Part shown: piece by piece, positions 4,254 through 43,677 of the stretch
Numbering within the stretch: position 1 is the first letter of the stretch
Layout of the letters: every line of letters begins with the position of its first letter
From: Flavobacterium sp. UBA7663
GTDB taxonomy: Bacteria; Bacteroidota; Bacteroidia; Flavobacteriales; Flavobacteriaceae
DNA length: 64,000 nucleotides
Assembly: GCF_002483315.1 (NCBI RefSeq)
Contig: NZ_DLHR01000001.1
Span: 1,756 to 65,755 of the forward strand
Direction of reading: 5' to 3'
Position numbers and translations under genes: made by a program
The notes under the pieces: model-generated
What the model saw: only the letters and a program-made list of their open reading frames with translations
Databases searched by the model: none
What the model was told of the DNA's origin: nothing

Positions 4254-4288
4254 GATGTTTGATTTATAATTTTATTAAGTTAATGTGT

Positions 4289-4588: not shown

Positions 4589-4696
4589 GTGGTTTTTATT
4601 TTTGTTTTAGCCTCAGTACTGATGTTTTTTGTGATTTCAATTCCGATAAAGAATAAAATTCCGATCGTCATACTAATGTTAATGAGTTTGTTCATG

Positions 4697-5152: not shown

Positions 5153-5209
5153 TTTTTATTAAATTTAAAAGTACTTTGAATTTCAAAGTAAATAGATAAA
5201 AAAATAGAT

Positions 5210-5506: not shown

Positions 5507-5522
5507 GATTTAGTTTAAAAGG

Positions 5523-6149
5523 TTAATAGTTATCGAATATAGTTTCAACCATATTTGATTCATATAATTGAGAAGGCGCAACAACTGCCTCGTTATAAGG
5601 AATTTTATTACCATATCTTTCCTTCATAATACTTTTTACAATCGGACTATCGAGATTAAAATCCTTAAGTTTTTTGGTTTTACATAATTCAATATTAGCT
5701 CCACTTTTATAAATTTTCCAAACCAATTCAGAACAATATATTTTATCATCACTCCATTCAAAGTATAAATCATAATCTTTGTTATTCATTGATTTTCCGT
5801 AAGACTTCATTTTTAGTAAAACTTCATTAGTCAATATTTTATCTGAGTTTCTTAATCTTTTTACAGCATATTTAGCATCTTTTCCATGAGAAATCCAATC
5901 TTCAAGCAAAGTCATTTTAACAGGTTGAACCGCTTCATATACGTAAGTTTTACCATTTTCAATAAAGATGATTCCACAATGAGAAAATTTTGAATTAGTT
6001 GCAATTTTAACTGCTTCACATTGTTTAGATTGTGAAGTTTGAAAAATGATATCACCATTTTGAAAAGCAACTTCTTTACTATTGATTTCTTTACAATTAA
6101 ATGAAATAAAAATTAAACCAAAGAAAAGCGATACAATTAGATTTTTCAT
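5523..6149 (-). CDS. YiiX/YaeF family permuted papain-like amidase (secreted)
   Basis: Signal peptide; GDIIFQTS...FSHCGII and YCSELVWKIY motifs of the C92 permuted NlpC/P60 family. Confidence 0.7.
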   Translation of the reverse strand: MKNLIVSLFFGLIFISFNCKEINSKEVAFQNGDIIFQTSQSKQCEAVKIATNSKFSHCGIIFIENGKTYVYEAVQPVKMTLLEDWISHGKDAKYAVKRLRNSDKILTNEVLLKMKSYGKSMNNKDYDLYFEWSDDKIYCSELVWKIYKSGANIELCKTKKLKDFNLDSPIVKSIMKERYGNKIPYNEAVVAPSQLYESNMVETIFDNY

Positions 6150-6150
6150 C

Positions 6151-6774
6151 TTATTTTCTCTCGTATTTAAAATACATTAAACTTCCATATAAAATGTGGC
6201 AACCTCCAAAACCTAATGCCCAGAATAATAATCCATAACCTAAGAACCAAGTCGATAATAAGCCTAAAGCTATCATAGTAATTCCTAAATAACGAACATC
6301 TCCCAAAGTATATTTACTTGCATTTACGCAAGCTAATCCGTAGAATATCAAAGTTAATGGAGCAACTAAACCCAACATGTTTTTTTCGATTAAAAAGATA
6401 ATTAAAAATCCACCAGTTGCCAAAGGAATCATAAAGTTGATAACCAATCTTTTTGAAGCGGTATTCCATACATTTTCATGACTTTTTCTCGCTTTACTGA
6501 TACTTAAAACAATCCCAGTTACAATTGACAACACCAAAACGGATGTTGCTATTATCAATAATCGAATTACAGCAGCTTCAGAAATGATTAAATCACGATA
6601 AGCACCCATTGTTGAAGTATCAAAGTAAATGGTTTTATAAGCTAACCATGCTCCAATTAAAGCATAAATACCGGCTAAAATTCCCGATAAACCACTCAAA
6701 GATATGAAACGTGATGATTTGTTCATCAAATTTTTGATTTCGGTAATGTCGTTAAGATATTTCTCGTTTTTCAT
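6151..6774 (-). CDS. integral membrane protein, function unknown
   Basis: Multi-TM ORF. The start was moved to MKNEKYL (6774) because the tracked start at 6855 overlaps the divergent gene's upstream region. Confidence 0.5.
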   Translation of the reverse strand: MKNEKYLNDITEIKNLMNKSSRFISLSGLSGILAGIYALIGAWLAYKTIYFDTSTMGAYRDLIISEAAVIRLLIIATSVLVLSIVTGIVLSISKARKSHENVWNTASKRLVINFMIPLATGGFLIIFLIEKNMLGLVAPLTLIFYGLACVNASKYTLGDVRYLGITMIALGLLSTWFLGYGLLFWALGFGGCHILYGSLMYFKYERK

Positions 6775-6860
6775 TTTAAAGTACTTTGAAATACAAAGTA
6801 AATAATAAATATTTTGTTGACCAAACATTTTTTGCATTATTTTTGAAAAAATCATTTTTA

Positions 6861-7211
6861 ATGAAACCTACAGAAGCATATATACTCCGTCAACCTGAAC
6901 TATATCAATCAATGATGCTACATGTATTAGCAGTAGTAGAGCAGGAGCTTTCGCAATCTGAATTGCTTTTTAAATGGGGCATTCCGTATGTTTATTATAA
7001 CAAAAAACCATTTTGTTATTTGGCACCCAATCTTAAAAAAGGCTTTTTGGATGTTGGGTTTGCCAAAGGTTTTCAGTTAAAAAGGAATCAAGCAACTTTA
7101 ATTGATGAAAAGAGAAACACAGTAAAATCCTTGCGTTATTTTTCTATTGAAGAAATAGATAATACTGTTTTAATTGATGTTATTTCAGAAGCGAAATTAC
7201 TCTATAAATGA
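6861..7211 (+). CDS. DUF1801 domain protein
   Basis: 116 aa from the ATG at 6861. Resembles YdhG/DUF1801-type small proteins. Confidence 0.5.
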   Translation: MKPTEAYILRQPELYQSMMLHVLAVVEQELSQSELLFKWGIPYVYYNKKPFCYLAPNLKKGFLDVGFAKGFQLKRNQATLIDEKRNTVKSLRYFSIEEIDNTVLIDVISEAKLLYK

Positions 7212-7341
7212 TTTCAATTAATATCAAAGGCAAAACTATTTACTTAAAACACTTTAGTTTAAGCAAAATTTAAGAAGCAATTAAGCCATACTTAAGATAA
7301 ATTAAATCACTTAAATTCAACTTTGTATAAAATTAGTTTTT

Positions 7342-9300
7342 ATGCAAGTTGTCTCATTTTTTTCAAAAAGATATAGTCTTCTATTTGGATTTTCAAGTTG
7401 GTATTTATTGTTTTCGTTGCTACTTAGAATAATTTTTTTGGTTTGGCAATTAAATGATATAGAGCTTTCTGTATTTAGTTTAGCTAAAATTTTAGGAGTT
7501 GGATTGTTTTATGACTTTGGTGTGCTGTCGTTTTTGTTTGTGATTAGCACCTTTTATATTTTATTAATTCCTCAAAAATGGATAGGTAGTAAGCTAGATA
7601 AACTTCTAATTCATTCAGGTTTATCTTTAACATTGCTCATTTTTGTTTTTACTTTTTTTGCCGAAATCACATTTTGGGAAGAATTCAAATGCAGATTTAA
7701 TTTTGTTGCGGTAGATTATTTAATTTACACATTTGAAGTCGTACAAAACATTCACGAGTCGTATCCATTATATATATTAATTCCATCAATGCTTTTGATA
7801 ACTGGAGTTATTTTTTTCTATTTCTGGAAAAAACAGTTTTTCATTGAAACATTTAGCTCTAGAATTTCTTTCAAAAAACGAATAATTTCTTTTTGGGTAT
7901 CTATAATTGTGATGTCTTTTTACACATTATTCATTACTAATTCAAATGCAGAATGGTCAACAAATCGTTACAATAATGAAATTTCTAAAGCTGGAATTTA
8001 CTCTTTCTTTGCAGAATTAAGAAATAATAAATTAGATTTTAAAACATTCTATACCTCAATTTCCGACGAAGAAGCATTTAAAATTGTTAGAACAAACTTA
8101 CAAGAAGAAAATGCAAGATTTATAGCAAATGACTTTTCAATAAAACGAAAAATAACAGATAGTTTAGACACGAATAAAAAGCCAAACGTAGTTTTTATTT
8201 TGATTGAAAGTATGAGCGGAAGTTTTATGAGTGAATTTGGGAACGAAGAAAAAATCACACCATTTTTAGACAGCATTGCCAACGAAAGTTTATTCTTTAA
8301 AAATCTATATGCAACGGGAAATAGAACTGTTAGAGGTATGGAAGCGGTAACCTTATCAATTCCACCAACACCAGGTCAAAGTATTGTAAAAAGACCAAAT
8401 AATGCTAATTTATATACGATTTCAAATGTATTTAAAAGCAAAAATTATCAATGTAATTTCTTTTATGGTGGTGATGGTTATTTTGACAACATGAATGCCT
8501 TTTATGGCGGAAATGGTTTTGATATCTATGATAGAGGTAGAGGTAGCATTTTAAGTGATGCAATTAAAACTACACGTCATAATATTGAAGATAATGAGGT
8601 TACATTTGAAAATGCTTGGGGAATTTGTGACGAAGATATTTACAATAAAATGATTAAAGTTGCAGATGAATATCATCAAAAAAACAAACCTTTTTTAAAT
8701 TTTATCATGACAACATCAAACCACAGACCTTATACCTATCCAAATAATAAAATTGATATTCCTTCAGGAACTGGTAGAAATGGTGCTGTAAAATACTCCG
8801 ATTATGCATTGCAACAAATGTTTGCCAAAGCAAAAAACAAGCCTTGGTTTAAAAATACAATTTTTGTTTTTGTAGCAGATCATTGTGCAAGTAGCGCTGG
8901 AAAAGACGAAATTGATGTCAAAAATTATCAAATTCCAGCAATTATTTATGGACAAAATTTAATTCAACCTCAAAAGGTAACAAAATTATGTAGTCAAATA
9001 GATGTTTTTCCAACACTTTTTGGTCAATTGCATTGGAATTATACGTCAAACTTTTTTGGAACAGATGTTTTATCAAATAGTTATAAAGAAAGAGCTTTAA
9101 TGGGAACATATTTAAAATTAGCTCAAAAAAGCAATAATAATATTACCATTTTATCAAACCAAAAAAAGAGTGCAAATTATAAATGGAATCCAATTTCTAA
9201 TCAATTGTTTATATCACCTATAAGTAAATCAAAACTTTATGAAACAATTGCATGGTATGAAACTGCTGATTATCTATATTTGAATAATAAATTGAAGTAA
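7342..9300 (+). CDS. LTA synthase family / sulfatase-domain phosphoglycerol-transferase-like membrane protein
   Basis: N-terminal block of 5 TM helices followed by an alkaline-phosphatase-superfamily domain (VFILIESMS, NRTVRGMEA, ADHC). Confidence 0.75.
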   Translation: MQVVSFFSKRYSLLFGFSSWYLLFSLLLRIIFLVWQLNDIELSVFSLAKILGVGLFYDFGVLSFLFVISTFYILLIPQKWIGSKLDKLLIHSGLSLTLLIFVFTFFAEITFWEEFKCRFNFVAVDYLIYTFEVVQNIHESYPLYILIPSMLLITGVIFFYFWKKQFFIETFSSRISFKKRIISFWVSIIVMSFYTLFITNSNAEWSTNRYNNEISKAGIYSFFAELRNNKLDFKTFYTSISDEEAFKIVRTNLQEENARFIANDFSIKRKITDSLDTNKKPNVVFILIESMSGSFMSEFGNEEKITPFLDSIANESLFFKNLYATGNRTVRGMEAVTLSIPPTPGQSIVKRPNNANLYTISNVFKSKNYQCNFFYGGDGYFDNMNAFYGGNGFDIYDRGRGSILSDAIKTTRHNIEDNEVTFENAWGICDEDIYNKMIKVADEYHQKNKPFLNFIMTTSNHRPYTYPNNKIDIPSGTGRNGAVKYSDYALQQMFAKAKNKPWFKNTIFVFVADHCASSAGKDEIDVKNYQIPAIIYGQNLIQPQKVTKLCSQIDVFPTLFGQLHWNYTSNFFGTDVLSNSYKERALMGTYLKLAQKSNNNITILSNQKKSANYKWNPISNQLFISPISKSKLYETIAWYETADYLYLNNKLK

Positions 9301-9426
9301 ACTTAATTTTTACTTAAACCCGAAACACGAATGCAATATGTAATCATTTTTGCTGTTATTTTGTAATAGTATTAAAGTAAAAATTATAAAAGCTATTCTC
9401 CCTATATAGTTAATGAATTAAAAAGC

Positions 9427-9873
9427 ATGAAAAAGATGAAAAAAATCGCAATAATAACTTTCGTTTTCTTATCCAGTTTTAGTTTTGCTCAAGAATGGCA
9501 AACTAATTTTGAAGAAGCAAAAAAAATAGCAACCGAACAAGATAAAAATGTAGTAATCGTTTTTTCAGGTTCAGATTGGTGTGCTCCATGTATCAAATTA
9601 GATAAAAATATTTGGCAATCAGAAGCTTTTAAAAAAGAGGCAAAAGAAGAATGGGTTTTAGTTAAAGCCAATTTTCCAAGAAAAAAAGCCAATGAATTAC
9701 CAAAAGAGCAAACGGAACATAACAGAAAATTAGCCGAAAAATATAATGTAGAAGGCAGTTTTCCATTGGTTGTAGTTTTGGATAAAAATGGAAAAGTATT
9801 AGGAAAAATGGGATTCAAGAACGTTTCTCCTGAAGAATATATCAAAATGATTCACGCATTAGAGAAAAAATGA
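9427..9873 (+). CDS. secreted thioredoxin-fold protein
   Basis: Signal peptide plus the WCAPC active-site motif. Confidence 0.8.
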   Translation: MKKMKKIAIITFVFLSSFSFAQEWQTNFEEAKKIATEQDKNVVIVFSGSDWCAPCIKLDKNIWQSEAFKKEAKEEWVLVKANFPRKKANELPKEQTEHNRKLAEKYNVEGSFPLVVVLDKNGKVLGKMGFKNVSPEEYIKMIHALEKK

Positions 9874-10853
9874 GAGTAGTAACAATTCTTTTATTTGCTT
9901 TAGCAACAAGTAGTTCATTTGGTCAACAAATTTTTAAGAAAAAACAAAATTTGTTAGGAAGTCCATTTGAAATTACGGTTGTCGCTACAGATTCAATTCA
10001 GGGAAATCAATACACTGATTTGGCCATAGCCGAAGTAAAACGAATTGAAAATTTAATTTCTGATTGGATTCCGACGACTCAAATTTCAAAAGTGAATCAA
10101 AATGCTGGAATTACACCAGTTAAAGTAGATAAAGAAGTATATGATTTGGTTGAAAGAGCTACAAAAATTTCAAAATTAACTTCAGGAGCATTTGATATTA
10201 GCTATGCATCAATGGATAAAATTTGGAAATTTGACGGAAGCATGAAGGAAATGCCATCTCCAGAAGCTATTAAAAAATCGGTTGAAAGAGTTGGTTATCA
10301 AAACATAATTCTAAATCCAAAAGACACCACAATTTTCCTTAAAAACAAAGGAATGAAGTTAGGTCTTGGAGGAATTGGTCAAGGTTATATAGCAGATAAG
10401 ATTAAAGTTTTACTTCAAGAAAAAGGGTGTAAAAGTGGAATAGTCAATGTTTCAGGTGATATAAATACTTGGGGGAAACAACCTAATGGTGACCTTTGGA
10501 CTGTTGGAATTGTTAATCCGATGAACAAAAACAAAGTATTTGCCACGTTTCCATTAGATGATAGTGCGGTTGAAACTTCAGGAAGTTATGAAAAGTTTGT
10601 TACGTTCAACGGAAAACGCTATTCGCACATTATTGATCCAAGAACAGGTTATCCAGCAAGCGGAATTGTAAGTGTGTCTGTTTTTTCAAAACAAACTGAA
10701 TTAGCAGATGCTTTAGCCACTGGAATTTTCGTTTTAGGAGTAGAAGTTGGTTTAGATTTAATCAATCAATTAAACGGAATAGGTTGTATTATTGTTGATG
10801 ATAAAGGCACAATTCACATATCAAAAAATATAGACATTAAAAAATATCAGTAA
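9870..10853 (+). CDS. apbE: FAD:protein FMN transferase ApbE
   Basis: ApbE family motifs (AFDISYASM, GGIGQGY, TSGSYEKF). The start overlaps the thioredoxin stop by 4 nt. Confidence 0.85.
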   Translation: MRVVTILLFALATSSSFGQQIFKKKQNLLGSPFEITVVATDSIQGNQYTDLAIAEVKRIENLISDWIPTTQISKVNQNAGITPVKVDKEVYDLVERATKISKLTSGAFDISYASMDKIWKFDGSMKEMPSPEAIKKSVERVGYQNIILNPKDTTIFLKNKGMKLGLGGIGQGYIADKIKVLLQEKGCKSGIVNVSGDINTWGKQPNGDLWTVGIVNPMNKNKVFATFPLDDSAVETSGSYEKFVTFNGKRYSHIIDPRTGYPASGIVSVSVFSKQTELADALATGIFVLGVEVGLDLINQLNGIGCIIVDDKGTIHISKNIDIKKYQ

Positions 10854-34996: not shown

Positions 34997-35365
34997 TTAG
35001 TAAGCTAAAAACGCTTTGTTATATTCTTTTAAGTCTAAAACATTATTTTTCTTTTCTAAATCAGTTAATAATGAAAGGAAATAATTGAAACTTTCTACAT
35101 TATTTTCGTCTGAAATTTTCACTTCTAATTCAGTATCTTTACTGTCAATTGGTTCATCATCTGGAATACCAATAAAAAATCCATTGTTATTTTCTAAATG
35201 TTCGTAGGCTAAACGTAAAGCTTTAGTTTCAACTGGATTATTTAGTTCTAAGGTAATCTCTCTAAGTTTTTTTAAATCTGTTACAATTTCAGAAACTTCA
35301 AAATTATCTTTAAATAATTCTTTCTGAATCTTTTCGATTAATTTAAGGGCTTGTCTATTTTCCAT
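34997..35365 (-). CDS. hypothetical acidic protein
   Basis: 122-aa ORF. Last chromosomal gene before the left dif-like site. Confidence 0.45.
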   Translation of the reverse strand: MENRQALKLIEKIQKELFKDNFEVSEIVTDLKKLREITLELNNPVETKALRLAYEHLENNNGFFIGIPDDEPIDSKDTELEVKISDENNVESFNYFLSLLTDLEKKNNVLDLKEYNKAFLAY

Positions 35366-35460
35366 GATTCATAATAATATAGTTAGCAAAACTAAACTTT
35401 TTCATAGTTTTACACAAACGTTTTGAGTAGTATTTTAACAAATTTTGAAGTAATTTAAAT

Positions 35461-35488
35461 TTGACCTATAATATACAACATGTAAAAT
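35461..35488. other. dif-like Xer recombination site, left junction (degenerate right arm)
   Basis: TTGACCTATAA-TATACA-ACATGTAAAAT. 11-6-11 layout, 25/28 identical to the site at 41659-41686. Confidence 0.65.
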
Positions 35489-35521
35489 TGTATAGTTAGA
35501 AAAATGTATTATATTTGCACT

Positions 35522-35589
35522 CATATATCTGAATTATATACAGCGAATAGGGAGGTGCGACTAACACCGATGAACTATTCGCTTTTTTT
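35522..35589 (+). ncRNA. candidate small RNA (plus strand) inside the element
   Basis: TATATTTG -7 box at 35510-35517. Conserved blocks CATATATCTGAA (35522-35533) and GAGGTGCGACTAACACCG (35552-35569). Terminator stem AGCGAATAG (35542-35550) / CTATTCGCT (35575-35583) followed by T7. Confidence 0.3.
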
Positions 35590-35590
35590 A

Positions 35591-36016
35591 TTAATTTACT
35601 TTTGCAGTTGCTTTATAAACTTCATCTTTATTAACGTAAATCCAGTATGTACAATCTTCAACGTTGCATGATGATATAGTTAAAAATTTGTTTGAACCGT
35701 TAATTTTTAAAGTTCCTGTAGTTGTGTACTCAATATTAGCAATGTTATTATTAATAATATATTCAATTGTTGAAGTAGGATAAATTATAATAGTAACGGT
35801 TTTATTACCAATAGTAAAGTTTGAAAGAGAATAAGAGGTAGAACTATTTTTCTCATAGTATCTAACAATGTTTTCAGTAAAAACAAAGTCTTCATCTAAT
35901 GACTGAATATACTTTAAATTGTCATATTCTGAAAAAGAAATTTTTTCATTTTTAACAGAAGTTTGCGAAAATGAAAATGAAGTTAGAAAAATAAAAATAA
36001 AAGAATAAATTTTCAT
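35591..36016 (-). CDS. secreted beta-rich protein (cargo/moron-like)
   Basis: 141 aa with signal peptide MKIYSFIFIFLTSFSFSQ. Separated from the main element operon by a terminator. Confidence 0.5.
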   Translation of the reverse strand: MKIYSFIFIFLTSFSFSQTSVKNEKISFSEYDNLKYIQSLDEDFVFTENIVRYYEKNSSTSYSLSNFTIGNKTVTIIIYPTSTIEYIINNNIANIEYTTTGTLKINGSNKFLTISSCNVEDCTYWIYVNKDEVYKATAKVN

Positions 36017-36190
36017 AATAATTTAAATTAAAATTAGCAATCGCCTACCGGGCTCCTTTGCGGAAATAAATTAAAAAGGACAATTTTTAATTTATTTAAG
36101 GAACGCCTATCGGCTGTTTTTTTTTATTTTGCCTGTCACGAACCAGCTACAAAATTATCATTTTGCTTAACGCTGGAGGCTTGATAGAGT

Positions 36191-36227
36191 AGAAAAAGGA
36201 AAACCTATACAATTTCTCGTATAGGTT
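36191..36227 (-). terminator. rho-independent terminator ending the element's late operon
   Basis: AACCTATAC (36202-36210) pairs with GTATAGGTT (36219-36227). TTCCTTTTTCT follows on the minus strand. Confidence 0.6.
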
Positions 36228-36336
36228 CTTTATTGTGGATTGTATATAAAATTAAAGGCTTGCATATATCTGAACTCTATTTTGAGAGGTGCGACTAACA
36301 CCGTTTCATCGACAAATATACATAAATTTTTAAATT

Positions 36337-36714
36337 TTATGGAATTATGTAAAAATAACTATCTTTTTTTCTAAAATCGCCCTCATACAACCAATCCAAA
36401 TCGTGCATTTCTTTACCGTAAAAATACACTTCTTTTAAACTTAAATTTGTGAAAAACAAACTTTCAGCATTAACTTGATGCAATTGATTTTTTTCGTTGA
36501 AAATAGCCAATACAAATAAGTCATCTGGAAGAATAGCACTATGAATAGTGTAAACTTGTTTTTCTAAATAAACCAATTCAAATTTAGTAAGTTCAACAAA
36601 AACAATTTTTTTGTTTCTGTTGATCGCCATTAATTTAAAAGTATTTTTAGTTAAATCTAATTTAGGTAAATACTTTAATGTTTCATAGCTTAATTGAACT
36701 AATCGCTTACTCAT
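36337..36714 (-). CDS. element protein, function unknown
   Basis: 125-aa ORF, 4 nt downstream of the preceding stop. Confidence 0.5.
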   Translation of the reverse strand: MSKRLVQLSYETLKYLPKLDLTKNTFKLMAINRNKKIVFVELTKFELVYLEKQVYTIHSAILPDDLFVLAIFNEKNQLHQVNAESLFFTNLSLKEVYFYGKEMHDLDWLYEGDFRKKDSYFYIIP

Positions 36715-36718
36715 ATGA

Positions 36719-37240
36719 TTAATTTAAAGTTAATTTAGCTTGTACTCTTTTAAGTTCGGCTTCATCTAACAACGCAAATAAATCATCTGTTAAAACTCTG
36801 TTGTTTGTGTAAACTTCGTTATACAGGCGTTTTAGATAATTGAAATTGTAACGTTGATAAATAAGTGTATCCGCTACTTTTTTGTCATTCTCTGTCCAAC
36901 CTCGTGGGTCTAACCAGCTCCACCAAGAATTCTTATCGCTGTATTTTGTACCCAAATCATGAGCCAATTGTTTAGCTGCACTTTGAACATCTTTACGAGT
37001 AGTAATTTTGTCCGCTTTATTCTGTGCAATAACAGGATTTTGATTTTGAATATAATTTACATTGTTTTGGTTTTCTTGATTTTCTACATCTATTTCAGTT
37101 TCTAAACCTTTGAATTTATTATACTGGCGAATAATGAAACGAGCCAAAGGGAAGAATAAAATAATGCCTATAATAATATAAAGCCACTTTTTCCAATTGA
37201 ATGGAGTAGTGGCTTTTTTTGTGATTTTCTTTTTGTACAT
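36719..37240 (-). CDS. element membrane-anchored protein
   Basis: 173 aa with one N-terminal TM helix (WLYIIIGIILFFPLARFII). The start overlaps the upstream stop as TAATG. Confidence 0.55.
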   Translation of the reverse strand: MYKKKITKKATTPFNWKKWLYIIIGIILFFPLARFIIRQYNKFKGLETEIDVENQENQNNVNYIQNQNPVIAQNKADKITTRKDVQSAAKQLAHDLGTKYSDKNSWWSWLDPRGWTENDKKVADTLIYQRYNFNYLKRLYNEVYTNNRVLTDDLFALLDEAELKRVQAKLTLN

Positions 37241-37344
37241 TATTTTTTGTATTTTTTATACAAGAAAAATGCGCCAGTAATAGAAACTAAACCAACTAAA
37301 CCAATAATGATTTTAGTTTTGTGTTTTGTCCAAAATTCTTTCAT
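37240..37344 (-). CDS. 34-aa single-TM protein (holin-like position)
   Basis: MKEFWTKHKTKIIIGLVGLVSITGAFFLYKKYKK. Not in the ORF track because it is too short. It starts 2 nt after the transglycosylase stop and ends in a TAATG overlap. Confidence 0.4.
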   Translation of the reverse strand: MKEFWTKHKTKIIIGLVGLVSITGAFFLYKKYKK

Positions 37345-37346
37345 TT

Positions 37347-37976
37347 TTAAAAATATTTTTTGCAATGTGGACACTGCGTTAGAACTTTTTTTTTTACATC
37401 GATTTCAGAGAAAATTGAACCGTACCACTTTTTAAACATGTCAATAACATATTTCTTTTTTACTACACCGTCTTTTGCAAAGATTGGATTTTGTTTAGCA
37501 ATTAGTGACGCGCTTAAACCTTTAGTCTGAAAAATAAAGTCATCATCTTTACCGACAGCAAGCGGAAAGAATGTTACCAAATAAGTATCTACAAAACTTT
37601 CAGGAACTTTTTTAGTAGTTCTTATGACTTCTCTGTAGTATTCCTTAACTACGTTCATTTGTTCTGAAAATGACATTTTTGCCAAATCAGAAAGTAAGTA
37701 ACGTTTACCGTTAATAGTTTTGTAGTTTACACCAGCTTTATCCCTTGTAAATTGAATAAGACCGACAGAACCAATACTATTAGTTTTTGAAGGACTAAAT
37801 GTTTTACCACTTTCAAAGTACATAACCGCAAGTAACCAGTTTGGGTTAATATCCAAATCATTACAAACTTCTATTACTTTGTCAATTTGTGCTTGAGATA
37901 GTAATTTTGTGAATTTACTACTTATCATTGTTGACTTCCTTGTTTTGTTTGTTTTCGATTTTTTCAAATTGCTCAA
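37347..37976 (-). CDS. lytic transglycosylase-like peptidoglycan hydrolase
   Basis: LLAVMYFESGKTFSP...SVGLIQFT matches the catalytic Glu-Ser and GLxQ blocks of SLT-type transglycosylases. An alternative start at 37928 (MISSKF) is possible. Confidence 0.65.
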   Translation of the reverse strand: MSNLKKSKTNKTRKSTMISSKFTKLLSQAQIDKVIEVCNDLDINPNWLLAVMYFESGKTFSPSKTNSIGSVGLIQFTRDKAGVNYKTINGKRYLLSDLAKMSFSEQMNVVKEYYREVIRTTKKVPESFVDTYLVTFFPLAVGKDDDFIFQTKGLSASLIAKQNPIFAKDGVVKKKYVIDMFKKWYGSIFSEIDVKKKVLTQCPHCKKYF

Positions 37977-38061
37977 TAGAGTAACCGATAATATCGAAAA
38001 TAACCGTTAAATATGCGCCATATTTCAACGCAAATCGTAATCCGTTTAAAAATCCTTTCAT
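37918..38061 (-). CDS. 47-aa small hydrophobic protein
   Basis: MKGFLNGLRFALKYGAYLTVIFDIIGYSIEQFEKIENKQNKEVNNDK. It fills an otherwise non-coding gap in a very compact operon and overlaps the alternative transglycosylase start. Confidence 0.3.
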   Translation of the reverse strand: MKGFLNGLRFALKYGAYLTVIFDIIGYSIEQFEKIENKQNKEVNNDK

Positions 38062-38107
38062 AATAATAAAAGTGTTTTAAAACGCCTAAAATAATAGGCG
38101 TTTGATT

Positions 38108-38323
38108 TTACATTGAAGAGTGAGATGGTTTTTTCTTTACTAATGTAATTTTAACCCAAAATTCAACTCCGTCTTTTTGTGCCTGTGATGGTTCAACTTT
38201 ATAAAGTTTACCGCCTAATTCAACATAACCGCTTGAAAATCCTGTACCTTTTTTGTCTTTACAGCCAATTAACTGATAAGGGTTACCAAATTTATCTGTT
38301 GAAATTCTACTTTGTCCAGCCAT
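38108..38323 (-). CDS. 71-aa basic protein, function unknown
   Basis: ORF whose start overlaps the upstream stop as TAATG. Confidence 0.5.
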   Translation of the reverse strand: MAGQSRISTDKFGNPYQLIGCKDKKGTGFSSGYVELGGKLYKVEPSQAQKDGVEFWVKITLVKKKPSHSSM

Positions 38324-38526
38324 TACTCTTGTGTGTTTTGATTAGATAATACTTCTTTTTGCTCTTGTGGTGCTTTTGGTTTTTTTAACATTTTGAACAA
38401 TGTTACCACACCGATTACTAATTGAATTAGTAATTTACCGACCTCAATCATTGGAGTCCCGTCGGTTGGAACTTGACTGACACCTTCAACAAAGCCGATG
38501 CCAGTCAATCCTATTACTGCTTTCAT
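38323..38526 (-). CDS. 67-aa membrane protein
   Basis: Internal start MKAVIGLTGIGF... at 38526 gives a TAATG overlap with the upstream stop. The longer tracked version (to 38640) overlaps the preceding gene out of frame. Confidence 0.45.
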   Translation of the reverse strand: MKAVIGLTGIGFVEGVSQVPTDGTPMIEVGKLLIQLVIGVVTLFKMLKKPKAPQEQKEVLSNQNTQE

Positions 38527-38978
38527 TATCTTCTGCGGTAAGTAGGTCTTTTTGAACCTAACATTTTTACGAAAACAAAAACTACAGTAACTGTACCTAA
38601 AATACCGCCTACAAGTTTTAACCAATTTTTTTTCAACCAAGCGTTAGCAGTATTATCTACTAAAGTTGAACCAATTTGACCAGCTTGTGGAGTTCCAGCA
38701 AGAACGTTTCCAGCACCTGTAAGTGCACCGCCTAATGCACCGTTAGCAATATCCTTGATACCAACGTTTGCACGTTGTAATGTAGCATTGTATTCTGCTT
38801 GTGCTTGTGCATCTGCTTGTGCTTGTGCTTTTTCTTGCTTTTGTGCTTCATGGCTTGCTTGCATACCGCTTACAATACCTGTGGGGTCGAACGCTGCACC
38901 AACTTTAACCAAGTTTTTAAAACTGATTTGTTTTGTTGCTTTCTTTACGAAACCGCCAATTTTTTTGAAAAATCCCAT
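38526..38978 (-). CDS. 150-aa Ala/Gln-rich protein with C-terminal TM helix and basic tail
   Basis: Amphipathic N-terminus MGFFKKIGGFVKK, an AQAQADAQAQAE repeat, a TM helix LVGGILGTVTVVFVFV, then RPTYRRR. Confidence 0.55.
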   Translation of the reverse strand: MGFFKKIGGFVKKATKQISFKNLVKVGAAFDPTGIVSGMQASHEAQKQEKAQAQADAQAQAEYNATLQRANVGIKDIANGALGGALTGAGNVLAGTPQAGQIGSTLVDNTANAWLKKNWLKLVGGILGTVTVVFVFVKMLGSKRPTYRRR

Positions 38979-38992
38979 TTCTTAAATAAAGA

Positions 38993-39748
38993 TTATTTGA
39001 TTAAACCCATAGCAAGTAATTCAACATCTTTACGCATAAAGAATTTGACTACACTGCCTTCATTTTTTCTCACGTTGATATTTACAATACCTTTCAATGG
39101 TAATTGAATAAAACCAACAAAATTTGGTAAAACTTTACCGTCATTACGAACGTATGCAACTGGGTCAATGTCTTGTGAAATTGCTCTAATTTCACGCATT
39201 GAATGTTTAGTTACTACTCCGTTATCGTGTGTAAAATTTAATTCTGTAATAGTTGCATCATCATCGATAATAGCAATATCAAAATTTCTTACATTGACAT
39301 CGTAGTTTGTTTGTTCGTCCGCAATGCTTTTTTCTTCATACATGTAGACATCATCAGAAGTAACTGGACTTTCAATACCGTCAAAAATGTATTTTTTCAT
39401 AGGGTCAAGATTTTTCAAAGCAAGTTTTAACTTGTCATTTGGACCCATAACTAATGCTCCCATTTCAGTTAATTCAATAACTGCAACTGTTTTGAAGCTT
39501 TCAGGATTTGTAGCAGGAAAAGAACCAATAGCGTCATCTCCATAAGTTGAAGCTAATAGGAATCTTTTTAAACTTACAAAACCCTGTGTGATTTCAAGAT
39601 TAGAACCGCCGTTTCTTTCGACTTGAATACTAATCAATTCGTCGCCGATTTCGTCTACGGTCTTGTCAGAAAAGAAAGCTAAACTTTCAATCCCTTTTTG
39701 TAATTCCGCTTTAGCATCTGCAACGCCTGTGGTTTCAATAATGTTCAT
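38993..39748 (-). CDS. candidate major capsid / structural protein
   Basis: 251-aa acidic protein that looks beta-strand-rich. It is the largest non-Rep ORF and the first gene of the late operon. Confidence 0.4.
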   Translation of the reverse strand: MNIIETTGVADAKAELQKGIESLAFFSDKTVDEIGDELISIQVERNGGSNLEITQGFVSLKRFLLASTYGDDAIGSFPATNPESFKTVAVIELTEMGALVMGPNDKLKLALKNLDPMKKYIFDGIESPVTSDDVYMYEEKSIADEQTNYDVNVRNFDIAIIDDDATITELNFTHDNGVVTKHSMREIRAISQDIDPVAYVRNDGKVLPNFVGFIQLPLKGIVNINVRKNEGSVVKFFMRKDVELLAMGLIK

Positions 39749-39794
39749 ACTATTTTTTATTTAATTAAAAATTTATATGGCAAATGTGAGAAAT

Positions 39795-39823
39795 GAAAAA
39801 AGGCACAATTATTGAATTGTACC
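39795..39823 (-). terminator. terminator separating the early (Rep/regulatory) and late (structural) modules
   Basis: On the minus strand: GGTACAATT-caat-AATTGTGCC followed by TTTTTT. Confidence 0.55.
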
Positions 39824-39858
39824 TTATATGTAGTATTTTTGTATAGAATATGTAGTAT

Positions 39859-40026
39859 TTATGCTATTTTGAAATACTTTTTAAAATGACAAAATAGGAC
39901 TTTTGGAGCACCCGTACTTTCTTTAATATCTTGTAAGTACTTTTTAGCGGTTCTGTCGTCTGAAACGTCTAACAAAGTCTTAATGTCTTTGTATGTTAAA
40001 ATTCTAAATTCTGAAATTGTTGCCAT
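39859..40026 (-). CDS. 55-aa putative HTH DNA-binding protein
   Basis: MATISEFRILTYKDIKTLLDVSDDRTAKKYLQDIKESTGAPKVLFCHFKKYFKIA (hand-translated; below the track cutoff). The LTYKDIKTLLDVSDDRTAKKYL stretch looks like a helix-turn-helix. Confidence 0.35.
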   Translation of the reverse strand: MATISEFRILTYKDIKTLLDVSDDRTAKKYLQDIKESTGAPKVLFCHFKKYFKIA

Positions 40027-40078
40027 AACATGGAAGTTTTTAGGTTAGAATAGAGGGGGTGCAACCCCTCTATTTGTT

Positions 40079-40258
40079 TTAAAAAATTAGTAATTGTCCG
40101 TTGTTTTCTATTCGTGGTTCTTTTACTGGAAATTCTTTGTTTTTGAATATTAGTTCTTGGCCATTAGAAAGGACATAAACATAATCAGTAATTTTTTGGG
40201 ATTTTGCTGAATGACTAACAATTAAACCCCTGTCTTTTTTTGCTTTTTTTGTACTCAT
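40079..40258 (-). CDS. 59-aa basic protein
   Basis: MSTKKAKKDRGLIVSHSAKSQKITDYVYVLSNGQELIFKNKEFPVKEPRIENNGQLLIF (hand-translated; below the track cutoff). Confidence 0.3.
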   Translation of the reverse strand: MSTKKAKKDRGLIVSHSAKSQKITDYVYVLSNGQELIFKNKEFPVKEPRIENNGQLLIF

Positions 40259-40303
40259 TTTTTTGTGCTTTGGTTAAAGTTTTTTTTAACTGGGGTGGGG
40301 GTA

Positions 40304-40504
40304 TCAGTAACCCCCACCGAGACCTTTAGAAATTTCGATAGAATTTTTTAGATTTTTTATTTGTAGTTCTAATAAATTTACTTTTAATGTGTAAGACCAA
40401 GGTTTAAAATTTGTAGGATTATTCCTAAACTCTAAACGTAGTAATTTTAATTCAGCTTTAAGAAATTTTAAACGTGCTTTTGGAATTTTAAGATATTTTA
40501 CCAT
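40304..40504 (-). CDS. 66-aa basic coiled-coil-like protein
   Basis: The start overlaps the Rep stop by 7 nt. Confidence 0.4.
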   Translation of the reverse strand: MVKYLKIPKARLKFLKAELKLLRLEFRNNPTNFKPWSYTLKVNLLELQIKNLKNSIEISKGLGGGY

Positions 40505-41625
40505 AAATTTTGCATTTTAATAAATTGGTTAGTAATTGAATTTTGTTCTAATTGTTTGGTTAAATATTCAGTATCAAAAGTGATATCTATTAAATTTAAA
40601 ATCTTCTTTTTAGAGAGTGCTTTTTGAACTTTGCAATCAAATAAAGTAAGTGGTTCCTGAAGCGTTAATTTATCTGCACCAAGTTCTACGAGTTTATGCA
40701 TATAATAACTAATAATTTTATCTGTAGGACTTAAATCGGTAGATACAGAAAATTGCTTTTTTTCGTAATAATATTTTAACTGAACGTTGCAAATAGTAGT
40801 TAATTCAGTTTGTGAAATTGAAAGGATATCATTTAAAGTTGATAATTGATTTTCAGGATTTACAAGTTTCTTTTTGCGCAAATTTTGTTTTACTGCATTG
40901 TTTTTTATTGTGATTTCTTTTCTAATAATATTGTCAATAGATAGACCGTAACGTAATTGAGGGAATAAATACTTATTATAAAAATCAGCGGAATTAGTGA
41001 GCAATTCTTCTGTTTTGTTGTAAAATTTACAAAAGGGAGAGCCAATTTTCGCAGAATCTCTATTACTGAATTCGATACCATAATTTTTGTCGTTTTTGAA
41101 TGTTTCTTTACGTGGATAGAGTGTAACTTCATGTTGTTTTGAAGCTTTAACCATTTTTTTTAAGTATTGTAAACTTTGTTTATATGGTTCAAAATCAAGG
41201 TTGTAATTTATACAAATATCAATATCATTACATATAGAATTTAATGCAGTATCAAGGTCAAAACGTATGATTTGACGAGTATTGATATAATCGACAATCA
41301 TTTGTAAATTGTCAATGTTGATGCCTTCAAAGTATCTACCGAATAACATTTTTGAGGTCAATGTTAAACGTATTAGTTCTGTAGTTTCTTTTTTGATTAT
41401 ATTTGGCGGAAATACGACACGATTAAAACGAAAATTAATGCCATTATCTTTGATTAAAATTGGCTTTGGTGGGTTTAAATCTTCGATAATTTGGCCAGTT
41501 TCAGGATAATAAACTTGATATTCTGAAATTAAACGCTCATCAATAACCTGAATTTTATCTAATGGTAGATAAATAGTTAAAGAATCTATTAACCCGACAT
41601 TTAAGGGTATTGGGTTAAACTTCAT
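40498..41625 (-). CDS. rolling-circle replication initiator (Rep_trans / phage gene-II-CRI-like)
   Basis: 375 aa. SPFCKFYNKTEEL (Tyr202) resembles the R-I-Y-N/D-K active-site tyrosine context of pT181-type and filamentous-phage initiators. The start lies 33 nt from the right dif site. Confidence 0.55.
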   Translation of the reverse strand: MKFNPIPLNVGLIDSLTIYLPLDKIQVIDERLISEYQVYYPETGQIIEDLNPPKPILIKDNGINFRFNRVVFPPNIIKKETTELIRLTLTSKMLFGRYFEGINIDNLQMIVDYINTRQIIRFDLDTALNSICNDIDICINYNLDFEPYKQSLQYLKKMVKASKQHEVTLYPRKETFKNDKNYGIEFSNRDSAKIGSPFCKFYNKTEELLTNSADFYNKYLFPQLRYGLSIDNIIRKEITIKNNAVKQNLRKKKLVNPENQLSTLNDILSISQTELTTICNVQLKYYYEKKQFSVSTDLSPTDKIISYYMHKLVELGADKLTLQEPLTLFDCKVQKALSKKKILNLIDITFDTEYLTKQLEQNSITNQFIKMQNLW

Positions 41626-41658
41626 AACTAATTGGTTTTAAATTAGTTGATAAAGTGT

Positions 41659-41686
41659 TTGAACTATAATATACATTATGTAAAAT
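41659..41686. other. dif: dif (Xer recombination) site, right junction
   Basis: TTGAACTATAA-TATACA-TTATGTAAAAT. The right arm is 10/11 identical to the E. coli XerD arm TTATGTTAAAT, and the inner arms ATAA/TTAT are palindromic. Confidence 0.65.
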
Positions 41687-41757
41687 AGAAAATTTAAACA
41701 ATTACTTCTATAAGCCAAACAAACTTTGTATCTTCGTTTAATAAATTAACAGAGTTT

Positions 41758-43677
41758 ATGAAAAACCCTATTGCCGAACGCATCACCGATTTTTTAAAGC
41801 ATTATCCGCCCTTTTCAAGTTTATCCTATCTAAACTTGTTAGAGATTGCTAAAACTTGTCAAGTAATTTACTTAGAAAAAAATCAAACTCTATTTAAAAT
41901 TAATGATGCAACCCATTCTTTTTTTTATGTAGTGGCTTCTGGTGCTGTTGGTTTATCTGTAACTTCAGATGCAGATGATGTTTTAATTGATAAATGTGAT
42001 GAAGGCGATATTTTAGGTTTACGTCCATTTTTTGCTAAGAATAATTATTTAATGACAGCAAAAGCTCGTGAAGAAAGTATTATTTATGCTATTCCTATAG
42101 AAACATTTAAACCTTATGTAATTGCAAATCCAGAGGTTTTAAGCTTCTTATTAGAAAGTTTTGCATCCAATACTAGAAATCCTTATGATAAAAACAACAA
42201 AGGAAAATTAGTTTCTGAAAACGTTATTTACAATGATCAGAGCTCAGAAATTCAGTATTATCAGCCTATAAAATATACTTCAAATCCGATAACGGCTTCT
42301 CCTAATGATATTGTGAAATTTGTAGCACAAACTATGTCGAGTAGCAAAATTGGTAGTATGATTATTCATGAAAATAGAAAACCAATCGGAATTGTTACTG
42401 ATAAAGATTTGCGATCTAAAATAGCAACCGGACTTTATTCTATAGATGTAACGATTGATAAAATCATGTCTTCTCCAGTAATTACTGTAGCTGACAACTT
42501 ATCCATTGCTGAAGCTCAAATTATCATGCTAAAGAATAATGTATCGCATTTATGTGTTACAAAAGATGGTTCTACCGATTCTGAAATTACTGGAATTATT
42601 ACCGAACACGATATTGTGGTGGCTCAGGCAAACAATCCAGGTGTGCTTTTAAAACAATCAAAACGTGCTCAAAAATCAGCTGATTTAAAAGAAGTTAGAG
42701 AGAAATTAGCTGATTTGATTCAGCATTCGTTAGATAAGAATGTACCTATTAATCATATTGGTTCTATTGTTGGCGAAATTAATTTAGCAATTACCAAACG
42801 CGCTATCGAATTAGCTATTGAGAAAATAGGAACTCCTCCTCCAGCCCAGTTTGCTTGGATGAACATTGGAAGTCAAGGCAGAAAAGAACAACTTTTACTA
42901 ACAGATCAAGACAATGCTATTGTTTTTGAAGATGTTCCAGAAGATAAATACGATACTGTTAAACAATATTTTATCGAATTAGCTGAAAAAGTAACCAAAA
43001 CGCTTAATAAAGTTGGTTACGAATATTGTCCTGCCGAAATGATGGCTAGCAATCCGCTTTGGTGTAAATCGGTTAGCGATTGGCAAAACCAATTTAAAGG
43101 TTGGATTACAGCTCCTGGAGAAAAAGGGATTCTGATGTGTACCATTTTCTTCGATTACGATTTTGTGTACGGAAATGAAACTTTAGTAGATGCTATTACC
43201 AAAACAATTCACGAAGAAACTCATGAAAATCAGTTGTTTTTTGCCTATTTAGGTGCTGATGCATTGAAAAATCCGCCACCATTAGGGTTTTTCCGTCAGT
43301 TTTTAGTAGAAAGCGATGGTGAACACAAAGATACTTTTGATTTAAAAGGAAGAGCTTTAATGCCTTTGATTGACGCTGCTCGAATTTTATCCTTGAGCAA
43401 AGGAATTAAAAATACAGCCAATACCATTTCGAGATATGCAAAATTAGCTGAATTAGAACCACAAAACGCTCCTATTTATGAAGCTTGTGGCGACGCTTTT
43501 GCTGAATTATTAAAGTTTAGAACTGAAGAAGGTTTGAAAAACGAATCAGACGGTAGGTATTTGAATTTAAGTGAGTTATCAAAGTTAGATAAAGTAAAAC
43601 TTAAAAACGATTTCCAACCAATTAACGATATTCAAGAAGTTATTAAAAACCGATTCCAATTAACTTATTTTACGTAA
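41758..43677 (+). CDS. cNMP-binding / tandem CBS / DUF294 putative nucleotidyltransferase signalling protein
   Basis: 639 aa. N-terminal cyclic-nucleotide-binding-like domain, CBS pair (IGIVTDKDL, GIITEHDI), then the DUF294 and DUF294_C regions (GSQGRKEQLLLTDQDNAIVF). Confidence 0.8.
   Translation: MKNPIAERITDFLKHYPPFSSLSYLNLLEIAKTCQVIYLEKNQTLFKINDATHSFFYVVASGAVGLSVTSDADDVLIDKCDEGDILGLRPFFAKNNYLMTAKAREESIIYAIPIETFKPYVIANPEVLSFLLESFASNTRNPYDKNNKGKLVSENVIYNDQSSEIQYYQPIKYTSNPITASPNDIVKFVAQTMSSSKIGSMIIHENRKPIGIVTDKDLRSKIATGLYSIDVTIDKIMSSPVITVADNLSIAEAQIIMLKNNVSHLCVTKDGSTDSEITGIITEHDIVVAQANNPGVLLKQSKRAQKSADLKEVREKLADLIQHSLDKNVPINHIGSIVGEINLAITKRAIELAIEKIGTPPPAQFAWMNIGSQGRKEQLLLTDQDNAIVFEDVPEDKYDTVKQYFIELAEKVTKTLNKVGYEYCPAEMMASNPLWCKSVSDWQNQFKGWITAPGEKGILMCTIFFDYDFVYGNETLVDAITKTIHEETHENQLFFAYLGADALKNPPPLGFFRQFLVESDGEHKDTFDLKGRALMPLIDAARILSLSKGIKNTANTISRYAKLAELEPQNAPIYEACGDAFAELLKFRTEEGLKNESDGRYLNLSELSKLDKVKLKNDFQPINDIQEVIKNRFQLTYFT

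Follow-up and report, generated by a model that had tools for sequence, protein, structure and literature searches.

A 6,226-bp element, counting the 28-nt sites at both of its ends, lies within a 64-kb stretch of Flavobacterium sp. UBA7663 DNA (hereafter the window), and it is very probably an intact-looking prophage of the ΦCjT23 type, inserted at the chromosomal dif site by site-specific recombination in the dif core. The host is a close relative of Flavobacterium cheniae and, judging from the sequence, the insertion was almost certainly made by the host's own Xer recombinases. This reading of the locus is not new, because Kejzar et al. (2022, Nat Commun; PMC9719478), who characterised ΦCjT23 as a temperate, lipid-containing single-stranded DNA (ssDNA) phage, described 57 dif-flanked ΦCjT23-like prophages, 6,021–8,407 bp long, from Flavobacterium and, in a few cases, other Flavobacteriaceae; the use of XerC/XerD was inferred there, by bioinformatics only, from 28-nt dif motifs at both prophage ends. 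A 2026 paper (PMC13269007) treats ΦCjT23-like prophages as established. The first-pass annotation of this DNA, which was not aware of characterised dif/Xer lysogeny in the group, is out of date on this point, and the element is a further member of a known group in a new host lineage.

The two terminal sites, attL and attR, stand in direct orientation and are identical at 25 of 28 positions. They lie exactly where the first-pass annotation had placed them, they are the sole 28-mer matches in the window at up to 3 mismatches, and 100 dinucleotide-preserving shuffles yielded 0 matches. The right-hand site, attR, which is separated from the rep start codon by 33 nt, equals the genus consensus dif, with 0 mismatches in L006, L017, L022, L024, L025, L027, L051 and other loci. 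Using the right-flank gene that adjoins attR (639 aa; cNMP-binding/CBS/DUF294) as a query, we retrieved 80 Flavobacterium loci, and more than 50 Flavobacterium loci keep the 28-mer in the corresponding intergenic space. In the closest genome, Flavobacterium cheniae DSM 22462 (L004), whose flanks are ~93% identical in DNA to those of the window, the locus is empty: the left-flank gene, a single dif (TTGACTTATAATATACATTATGTAAAAT) and the right-flank gene follow one another with no insert, so that 35460 is joined to 41687, as the first-pass annotation had predicted for an unoccupied site. The same empty arrangement, with both flank genes around one dif, was found in ~25 further Flavobacterium species.

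The junctions show how the two sites are composed. Aligned with the empty site of F. cheniae, attL tracks that site through the TATAA-TATACA core and then diverges; its sequence up to and including TTGACCTATAATATACA runs on into the empty site, and phage sequence stands to its right. The other junction is the mirror image, as attR differs from the empty site before the core, is identical to it from the core onward, and continues into a right flank collinear with that of F. cheniae. From this alignment it follows that attL consists of a host XerC arm and a phage XerD arm, and attR of a phage XerC arm and a host XerD arm, where the naming of the arms is modelled on E. coli dif and on PMC9719478. 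Joining the two phage arms reconstructs attP as TTGAACTATAA-TATACA-ACATGTAAAAT, and the attP junction expected in a circular form would read TTGAACTATAATATACAACATGTAAAAT. These junction sequences match what a crossover within the dif core would predict. A target-site duplication left by an unseen recombinase was also considered and discarded: what is repeated is the very dif conserved across the genus, and its two copies differ in the arm-swapped pattern that recombination predicts.

Between the sites lie 14 open reading frames (ORFs), all on the minus strand (Table 1). This count reproduces the first-pass one, and genes called independently on metagenome copies of the prophage agree with it almost completely. 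In agreement with the earlier claim, searches of the 14 ORFs against Pfam and PHROGs found no recombinase, integrase, resolvase, transposase, terminase or tail family, and a motif scan of the whole 64-kb window found no tyrosine-recombinase box. The 251-aa protein singled out earlier for its capsid-like size is homologous to the major capsid protein (MCP) of ΦCjT23 (35.6% identity, tblastn E 3e-29, blastp E 6e-43). It aligns over residues 2–239 with chain J of PDB 7ZZZ, ‘Major capsid protein P5’ (E 1.8e-40), and also matches phrog_20547 (4e-28) and the structural protein of Cellulophaga phages Omtje_1-5, phi18:4, phi48:1, phi12a:1 and phi12:2. The w12 protein resembles ΦCjT23 gp12 (blastp E 8e-10), phi12a:1 gp9 (2e-9) and the virion structural family phrog_19410 (1e-7), and has a transmembrane (TM) helix at residues 19–37. 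The proposed SLT-type lytic enzyme gains support from the lysozyme-containing families phrog_196/4928/13530 (3e-19 to 5e-13), its Pfam SLT match (E 0.002) falling short of the curated cut-off; the gene stands where ΦCjT23 has gp10 and the Cellulophaga phages have their glucosaminidase gene. For w13, the top Foldseek match among 350,542 PDB chains was 7zzz_P, the 91-residue penton domain of the ΦCjT23 spike (probability 0.99, TM-score 0.52/0.69, with 0.69 on the target, E 0.14), and we regard w13 as a probable short vertex protein on the strength of this structural model; in sequence, blastp found no similarity between w13 and the ΦCjT23 spike gp13, and hhalign gave no signal. As a whole, the gene order is that of ΦCjT23: rep, small ORFs, MCP, gp06 homolog, small membrane proteins, lysis enzyme, gp12 homolog and a gene in the spike slot.

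Two details of the earlier gene list did not survive. Small membrane proteins are present, but four proteins of the element have a clear TM helix rather than the five or six proposed, and the helix-turn-helix reading of the 55-aa protein (w4) obtained no profile support in Pfam, PHROGs or a PDB profile search, leaving a sequence pattern that is at most suggestive. The exclusion of two familiar families held: neither an F-type capsid protein >400 aa, as in Microviridae, nor a Zot-type ATPase with a filamentous coat, as in Inoviridae, was found with PHROGs or Pfam, the sole ‘Zot-like’ PHROG line being an E 0.05 match on w12. Profile and structure comparisons place the Rep and the structural candidates in phage families and not in chromosomal ones. 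That the element might instead be a non-viral rolling-circle plasmid or a non-viral Xer-exploiting integrative mobile element (IMEX), its capsid similarity being incidental, is extremely improbable. Distant Rep homologs do occur on 2–4.8-kb circles that lack a capsid gene and dif, and in L061 this dif is occupied by a different element that encodes a Rep but no recognisable capsid protein; here, however, the MCP homology to a solved virion structure is full-length, and homologs of gp06 and gp12, a penton-like protein and a lysis enzyme stand in ΦCjT23 gene order.

Table 1. Features of the element and of its control region (positions in the window).
Feature	Position	Strand	Description
attL	35461..35488	+	TTGACCTATAA TATACA ACATGTAAAAT; host XerC-side arm, central TATACA, phage-derived variant XerD-side arm (ACATGTAAAAT)
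-7 promoter box TATATTTG	35510..35517	+	antisense to the genes; candidate promoter of an antisense RNA of ~68 nt that is predicted to start near 35522
R1 (copy 1), structured element	35535..35592	+	9-bp outer stem, conserved interior, inner hairpin GGTG/CACC, T-run
w14	35591..36016	-	141 aa; hydrophobic, signal-peptide-like N-terminus; lineage-specific cargo between the two hairpin copies in the control region
Conserved non-coding control region	36017..36336	.	several hairpins and block CCTGTCACGAAC; candidate replication origin/promoter region
Copy 2 of inner hairpin (GAGAGGTGCGACTAACACCG)	36284..36303	+	preceded by a copy of the CATATATCTGAA block; without outer stem and T-run
-7 box TATATTTG, coding strand	36313..36320	-	candidate main promoter; predicted start near 36308, copy-2 hairpin at 5' end
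w13	36337..36714	-	125 aa; candidate vertex/penton protein; position of ΦCjT23 spike gene gp13
w12	36719..37240	-	173-aa membrane protein; homolog of ΦCjT23 gp12 and phi12a:1 gp9 structural protein
w11	37240..37374	-	44 aa; single-TM protein
Lytic transglycosylase-like enzyme	37347..37976	-	ORF of 209 aa; 193 aa by metagenome gene callers
w9	37918..38061	-	47 aa; weak homolog of phi12a:1 gp7 structural protein (blastp E 0.005)
w8	38108..38323	-	71 aa; kept in L096
w7	38323..38640	-	small TM protein; probably a 67-aa form starting near 38526
w6	38526..38978	-	150 aa; ΦCjT23 gp06 homolog (blastp E 3e-12); C-terminal TM helix 122-140
Major capsid protein (double jelly-roll)	38993..39748	-	251 aa; homolog of ΦCjT23 P5
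w4	39859..40026	-	55 aa; slot of ΦCjT23 gp04; 32-95% identity in relatives
w3	40079..40258	-	59 aa
w2	40304..40504	-	66 aa
Rep	40498..41625	-	375 aa; divergent rolling-circle initiator of Rep_trans type; Tyr202 in PFCKFYNKTEEL is the candidate catalytic residue
attR	41659..41686	+	TTGAACTATAA TATACA TTATGTAAAAT; phage XerC-side arm and host XerD-side arm, a reconstituted canonical chromosomal dif

The Rep is divergent. It matched nothing in Pfam or PHROGs, tblastn against 50,697 phage records gave no match, and a PDB sequence-profile search returned noise only, for which reason profile–profile and fold comparisons were needed. Its 40 homologs, from metagenomes and from F. fontis, F. croceum and other genomes, carry neither a functional name nor a Pfam domain; with 51% identity, they include the Rep (P0032) of the published F. 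croceum DSM 17960 prophage. A profile built from 25 of these sequences aligned with the Rep_trans proteins of ΦCjT23, phi12a:1 and Omtje at an hhalign E of 4e-5, pairing NDIDICINY / PFCKFYNKTEEL with NRLDLAVDY / RxYNKTLEM, i.e., the DxD and RxYNKT motifs, and residues D134, D136, K200, Y202, K204 and E207 are invariant in the 25 homologs. In the AlphaFold model (predicted local distance difference test, pLDDT, 89), the only Foldseek matches below 1e-3 were the four chains of 4CIJ (RepSTK1, a Rep_trans-family initiator), with probabilities of 0.99–1.0. Two family members match Phage_CRI (PF05144, the G2P N-terminal domain) at E 0.003. The F-Y-N-K motif that the first-pass annotation had noticed in this protein hence very likely marks the catalytic tyrosine, Y202, of an enzyme that is a divergent Rep_trans member.

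Relatives of the element were drawn from GTDB genomes, JGI metagenomes and exact-protein look-ups; scans of IMG/VR with the MCP and with the Rep alignment yielded none. Many Rep homologs lie on ~6-kb contigs, and several of these close into circles. L091 and L092 are one genome with different start points, whose 141-bp terminal overlaps close a circle of 6,061 nt, and L098 (5,979 nt) and L104/L105 (5,797 nt) are further closed circles. Each free circle has one dif-like site, which lies ~33 nt upstream of rep in antisense to the genes and whose XerD-side arm is non-canonical, and the integrated relatives (L083, L093/L095, L097, L100, L102) have a canonical dif beside rep and the variant site at the distal end. 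The circular junction that the first-pass annotation had proposed to look for thus exists in relatives, as free circles with one hybrid-type site, but none was recovered for this exact phage.

That last result is one ground for a different reading, namely that the element is a domesticated or defective ΦCjT23-like remnant at dif, unable to excise or to form virions. A free circle or attP junction of the exact sequence was not found, the cargo gene w14 is not on the free circles, and the variant XerD-side arm of attL may limit excision. We consider this reading unlikely. Each of the 14 ORFs is intact, and their arrangement is that of the free circular relatives (MCP 86%, Rep 80% identity). Copies of this prophage with an identical MCP come from no fewer than four independent metagenome samples, and the public data sets SRR5322588, SRR845265, SRR30924197 and JGI 3300000271 contain it. 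The variant arm is carried by the free circles too and is therefore the normal state of attP and not a sign of decay.

Several observations weigh against an active, Xer-integrated ΦCjT23-like prophage and temper our confidence in it. For this exact phage, the sole short contig (L087) ends inside the element and holds no circular junction. The link to Xer is read from the architecture of the sites, and host xerC/xerD were not seen in the 64-kb window, these genes lying outside it. The cumulative GC skew peaks at ~30–44 kb in the window, near dif, which is compatible with the replication terminus and, within 64 kb, only suggestive of it. On the protein side, the TM-scores of the Rep against 4CIJ are low (0.24–0.38), and neither the window Rep nor the 25 family members reach the Rep_trans (PF02486) gathering threshold; the reference phage Reps themselves score 24–30 bits against a cut-off of 29.6. 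The w13 assignment, finally, comes from a medium-confidence model (pLDDT 67) matched at E 0.14.

The favoured reading of an intact, Xer-integrated prophage suggests the following life cycle. The phage would exist as a double-stranded replicative circle with a single dif-like attP and no recombinase of its own. This attP and the chromosomal dif (TTGAC[T/C]TATAA-TATACA-TTATGTAAAAT) would recombine within their shared TATAA-TATACA core, presumably by host XerC/XerD, leaving the variant site, attL, at the end distal to rep and, beside rep, a perfect dif, attR, that would still be usable for chromosome dimer resolution. After excision, the Rep_trans-type initiator would drive rolling-circle replication, and the capsid, penton-like and membrane proteins, together with the transglycosylase, would build and release virions. 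The sequences show the insertion at dif, the empty site, the hybrid junctions, the homologies of capsid and Rep, and free circles of relatives; we infer the dependence on Xer, the order of strand exchange and the activity of this copy.

The phage-derived sites share a signature. Their XerD-side arm starts with G or A (GT, AC, GC or AT) and never with T in 13 of 13 cases, ΦCjT23 and phi12a:1 included; the XerD-side arm of host dif always starts with TT. Some sites (ΦCjT23, L102) deviate further out in this arm too. The XerC arm matches the host's, and the central hexamer always equals that of the host dif (TATACA or TTTATA). This architecture appears closest to the TLCφ/gonococcal genetic island (GGI) class of IMEXs, which likewise combines a good XerC-side arm and a centre identical to the host's with a deviant XerD-side arm in a single duplex attP, and regenerates a canonical dif on one side. 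Since the deviation here is limited mostly to the 1–2 bases abutting the central region, it could act like the XerD-side overlap mismatch of VGJφ, and should the deviant bases be part of the overlap region, the phage sites would be closer to VGJφ. The deviant arm may keep attL a poor substrate for FtsK-activated excision, leaving attR as the working dif; an XafT-like factor was not identifiable in the element. With TLCφ/GGI, VGJφ and CTXφ (PMC5357621) the element shares the lack of an own recombinase and integration at chromosomal dif; it differs from these Vibrio and Neisseria IMEXs in phylum and in virion, which is filamentous there and icosahedral and membrane-containing here.

An ssDNA phage could also enter the chromosome by the route of CTXφ, the best-known IMEX (PMC5357621), in which the ssDNA folds two inverted dif-like sites into attP(+), XerC alone acts, and there is no excision. 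The ssDNA genome fits such a route, which is nonetheless hardly credible here because no second, inverted dif-like site is present: each circle has one dif-like site, even when 7–9 mismatches are allowed on either strand. Moreover, two full, direct flanking sites with both arms are the outcome of recombination between a double-stranded attP and dif, as in VGJφ, TLCφ or the GGI.

Flavobacterium dif sites have at least two types of central hexamer, TATACA and TTTATA, with rare TTTACA, GTACA and GTATA variants, and the types are split by host clade (L004–L083, around position 9900). As phage attP and host dif share the hexamer types, the hexamer would be a determinant of host range. The same chromosomal locus holds other insertions. 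In L061, a Bacteroidia metagenome-assembled genome, an unrelated 5.9-kb element (4000–9954) lies between two dif sites, with an ORF2/G2P-type Rep (PF23343), an HNH endonuclease and a DUF5675 protein encoded on the dif strand; it has no recognisable capsid gene, and its distal site has GT in place of TT, as in the sites of the ΦCjT23 group. Inserts of 1–7 kb separate the left-flank gene/dif from the right-flank gene in L030 (~5707–10000), L077 (~4870–9288), L059 (~8960–10000) and L112 (5812–12963) and have no similarity to the element apart from a 28% identical Rep in L112. The dif locus thus looks like a hotspot for several types of element. On L101 (1–1672), two diverged rep copies (54% and 35% identical to the window Rep) point away from each other around one canonical dif, which may mean that two distinct prophages share this site or that the site has been rearranged. 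Distant Rep homologs (23–32%) also lie on closed circles of ~2.1–6.5 kb from freshwater and marine metagenomes (L107, L108, L114, L117, L127–L130, L134, L136, L138, L140, L141, L147–L150), in which neither a dif-like site nor an MCP homolog was detected; these circles may represent small plasmids, satellites or further lineages of phage.

Compared with the published ΦCjT23-like prophages, the element shares the homologous double jelly-roll MCP, the gene order, a size within the 6.0–8.4 kb range, 28-nt dif ends, a Rep near the start with the MCP soon after, the lack of an integrase and a Flavobacterium host. The published list, whose smallest member is the F. croceum DSM 17960 prophage (6,021 bp) and which includes F. 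cerinum 1E403 (our L069), does not contain this host lineage: F. cheniae is not listed, and its type strain is empty. Further differences are a Rep whose divergence from ΦCjT23 gp03 is beyond the reach of BLAST and Pfam, a vertex protein of 125 aa instead of 283 aa, the SLT-like lysis enzyme, the extra cargo gene w14 and an antisense hairpin restricted to this Rep lineage. An ssDNA genome and an internal membrane are suggested indirectly, by the rolling-circle Rep, the four small TM proteins and the 5.8–6.1-kb circles of relatives. ΦCjT23, which typifies a group of small, icosahedral phages of Flavobacteriia with circular ssDNA genomes and an internal membrane, is itself unclassified in the NCBI taxonomy. 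The cargo gene w14 is absent from all related elements, has nine relatives among 1.84 billion representative proteins and matches neither Pfam nor PHROGs; it is a candidate lysogenic-conversion gene.

The first-pass annotation had placed the element among small, membrane-containing ssDNA phages of Flavobacteriia, naming FLiP and the Cellulophaga phi48:2 group as its nearest kin; this guess was close, and the true relatives are ΦCjT23 and the Cellulophaga phages phi12a:1, phi18:4, phi48:1, phi12:2 and Omtje. The MCPs of the latter (phi12a:1, phi12:2, phi18:4, phi48:1, Omtje_1-5) are 28–32% identical to that of the element (E 1e-16 to 1e-19), and their ~6.5-kb genomes share homologs of w6, w9 and w12 and a Rep_trans-type Rep upstream of the MCP. 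They differ in having been isolated as lytic phages of a marine genus, in encoding a glucosaminidase instead of a transglycosylase, and in an extra -7 box directly upstream of the MCP gene. In GenBank they are filed under Microviridae, a label in conflict with the MCP homology: the MCP of the element matches both their structural proteins and the ΦCjT23 capsid protein of solved structure. Dif-like sites are found on their antisense strand as well, within 5136–5193 in phi12a:1 (L003) and 1091–1148 in Omtje_1 (L002), with a TATATTTG box 22 nt upstream on the coding strand; the phi12a:1 site reads TTGTACTATAA TCTATA GTATGTAAATT. A 2025 paper on phi18:4 (PMC11946311) reports turbid plaques and ‘no identifiable lysogeny genes’ and leaves Xer and dif-like sites unmentioned. 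From their sequences, these ‘lytic’ Cellulophaga phages may be temperate IMEX phages. FLiP (Finnlakeviridae) is likewise a Flavobacterium ssDNA phage with an internal membrane; according to PMC9719478, it is the double jelly-roll MCP of FLiP that comes closest in structure to the MCP of ΦCjT23. General phage searches, which did not include a direct comparison with FLiP, gave no sequence match between FLiP and the proteins of the element, and the FLiP genome is reported not to integrate (PMC13269007).

Next to attP, on the strand opposite the genes, we observed a control architecture common to 11 diverged lineages (the window, L083, L088, L091, L093, L097, L098, L100, L102, L103, L104). As a scan for sigma-70 promoters is uninformative in Bacteroidota, the Bacteroidota -7 consensus TANNTTTG/TAHHTTTG, with G at -5 (PMC6847099), was applied instead. 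The architecture begins with a TAnnTTTG box, which at the position corresponding to 35510–35517 is canonical in 9 of the 11 lineages. An outer stem of 5–9 bp, whose sequence is different in every lineage, starts 19–27 nt after the box and is followed by a conserved interior, an inner helix that covaries (GGTG/CACC, GGTA/TACC, GCTG/CAGC), the 3' half of the outer stem and a run of 6–10 T; the loop sequences of this copy 1 also differ between lineages, e.g., GCGACTAA versus GTTCCAA. In shape, the element, R1, resembles an intrinsic terminator or a small RNA antisense to the phage genes.

Covariation supports both R1 helices, which RNAalifold recovers. In the covariance-model alignment, 86% of cells pair versus 63% in shuffles, 10 of 13 pairs change on both sides, and the covariation score is 0.594 versus 0.176 in shuffles (0/500), with slid controls at 0.08–0.30. 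The covariance model finds one match in each of the 11 lineages (50–68 bits) and none in ΦCjT23, the Cellulophaga phages or F. cerinum (L069), so that R1 is confined to genomes with this Rep type; L136, L117 and L059 gave weak matches (E 0.2–0.9). No Rfam family matched 35300–41900 at a permissive threshold. A GAGGTG...CACC motif in the 4.4–4.5-kb circles L120/L121 was rejected as a coincidental simple hairpin in a plasmid-like replicon with a resolvase-like ORF. Thermodynamic folding gave z-scores of -3.4 versus -4.3 for the two strands, which does not tell the functional strand apart, and copy 2 alone has no significant thermodynamic fold.

The second copy, consisting of the inner hairpin and a 12–20-nt block, is present in 10 of the 11 lineages, in direct orientation and 300–730 nt from copy 1. 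It matches copy 1 of its own genome better than the copies of other genomes (mean score 38.6 versus 20.0; own copy best in 8 of 10), and in the window the block duplicated at copy 2 starts at the predicted +1 of the antisense RNA. Preceding copy 2, the coding-strand TATATTTG box is invariant in 10 of 10 lineages. When canonical -7 boxes were mapped in eight genomes (the window, L091, L098, L104, L097, L100, L102, L083), it was the sole intergenic coding-strand box in seven of the eight; the window has two, both in the control region. Around the circle, this box sits 430–830 nt ahead of attP. ΦCjT23 (L001) has a comparable layout, with only two intergenic coding-strand boxes (6788 and 6896), upstream of gp15 and attP, and its other genes beyond attP.

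We tentatively propose, from these sequence features, that lysogeny is maintained without a repressor, by disconnection of the promoter, and that an antisense RNA serves copy-number control or superinfection immunity. On the circle, the TATATTTG box would give rise to the main transcript, which would carry the copy-2 hairpin at its 5' end and cross attP into rep and the structural genes. With the main promoter upstream of attP, Xer integration would separate rep and the structural genes, rep through w13, from that promoter, and excision would rejoin them. In the lysogen, only the segment from the promoter to attP would still be promoter-linked, i.e., w14 and the ~68-nt antisense RNA (about 35522–35590), whose loop and 5' tail would be complementary to the 5' end of the main transcript via the co-evolving copy 2. 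This disconnection logic is akin to the circularisation-dependent expression of the Tn916 transfer genes and to lambda sib retroregulation. The countertranscript RNAs of pT181/pMV158, P4 CI and the c4 RNA of P1/P7 are likewise small, terminator-ended RNAs antisense to the leader of a replication or early transcript, with a target that co-varies with the RNA among related elements; here, by contrast, the target would be a second direct repeat at the 5' end of the main transcript, 300–730 nt away, attP lies within the leader, and the RNA is predicted from sequence.

Copies 1 and 2 could, as another possibility that we also hold with reserve, be DNA-level replication signals (Rep iterons, a nick site or a complementary-strand origin) rather than an RNA regulator. 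The hairpin tracks the Rep lineage and not the capsid module, occurring in all 11 lineages with this Rep and missing from ΦCjT23, the Cellulophaga phages and L069; repeats that are alike within a genome and divergent between genomes are typical of Rep-specific iterons, both strands of R1 fold equally well, and origins of rolling-circle replication are usually hairpins with a conserved loop. Such signals are harder to reconcile with two direct functional nick sites, which would split the genome in rolling-circle replication, and with the polarity of the element: all 11 of 11 instances of copy 1 end in a T-run on the antisense strand and have a -7 box at a fixed distance upstream, the duplicated block in the window begins at the predicted transcription start, and a T·G wobble (L100) is tolerated on the antisense strand only. 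The ΦCjT23 paper (PMC9719478) does not mention promoters, transcription or repressors, and we did not find the regulatory layout of the control region described in the literature.

Other parts of the non-coding sequence are also structured. The control-region blocks are common to L088, L091 and L093, and further hairpins at 36040–36230 (e.g., 36200–36229), with the block GCCTGTCACGAACCAGCTA conserved in the same three relatives, form a candidate double-strand origin or Rep nick site. Between w4 and the MCP gene (39800–39860), a terminator-like hairpin on the coding strand (39825–39800) accompanies a tandem 22-nt repeat (39817–39838 / 39839–39860, TTGTAnnnnATATGTAGTATTT), which together may act as an attenuator or operator for late-gene expression.

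For the phage group, the empty sites, the hybrid junctions and the closed circles of relatives provide comparative support for the published inference of Xer lysogeny, and the first-base change in the phage XerD-side arm offers a handle on how such prophages escape excision at every cell division. If promoter disconnection with an antisense RNA proves true, it would explain how 6-kb phages without a repressor and an integrase can have a stable, reversible lysogeny, and it would offer a simple model for the Bacteroidota, in which the regulation of phages has received little study.

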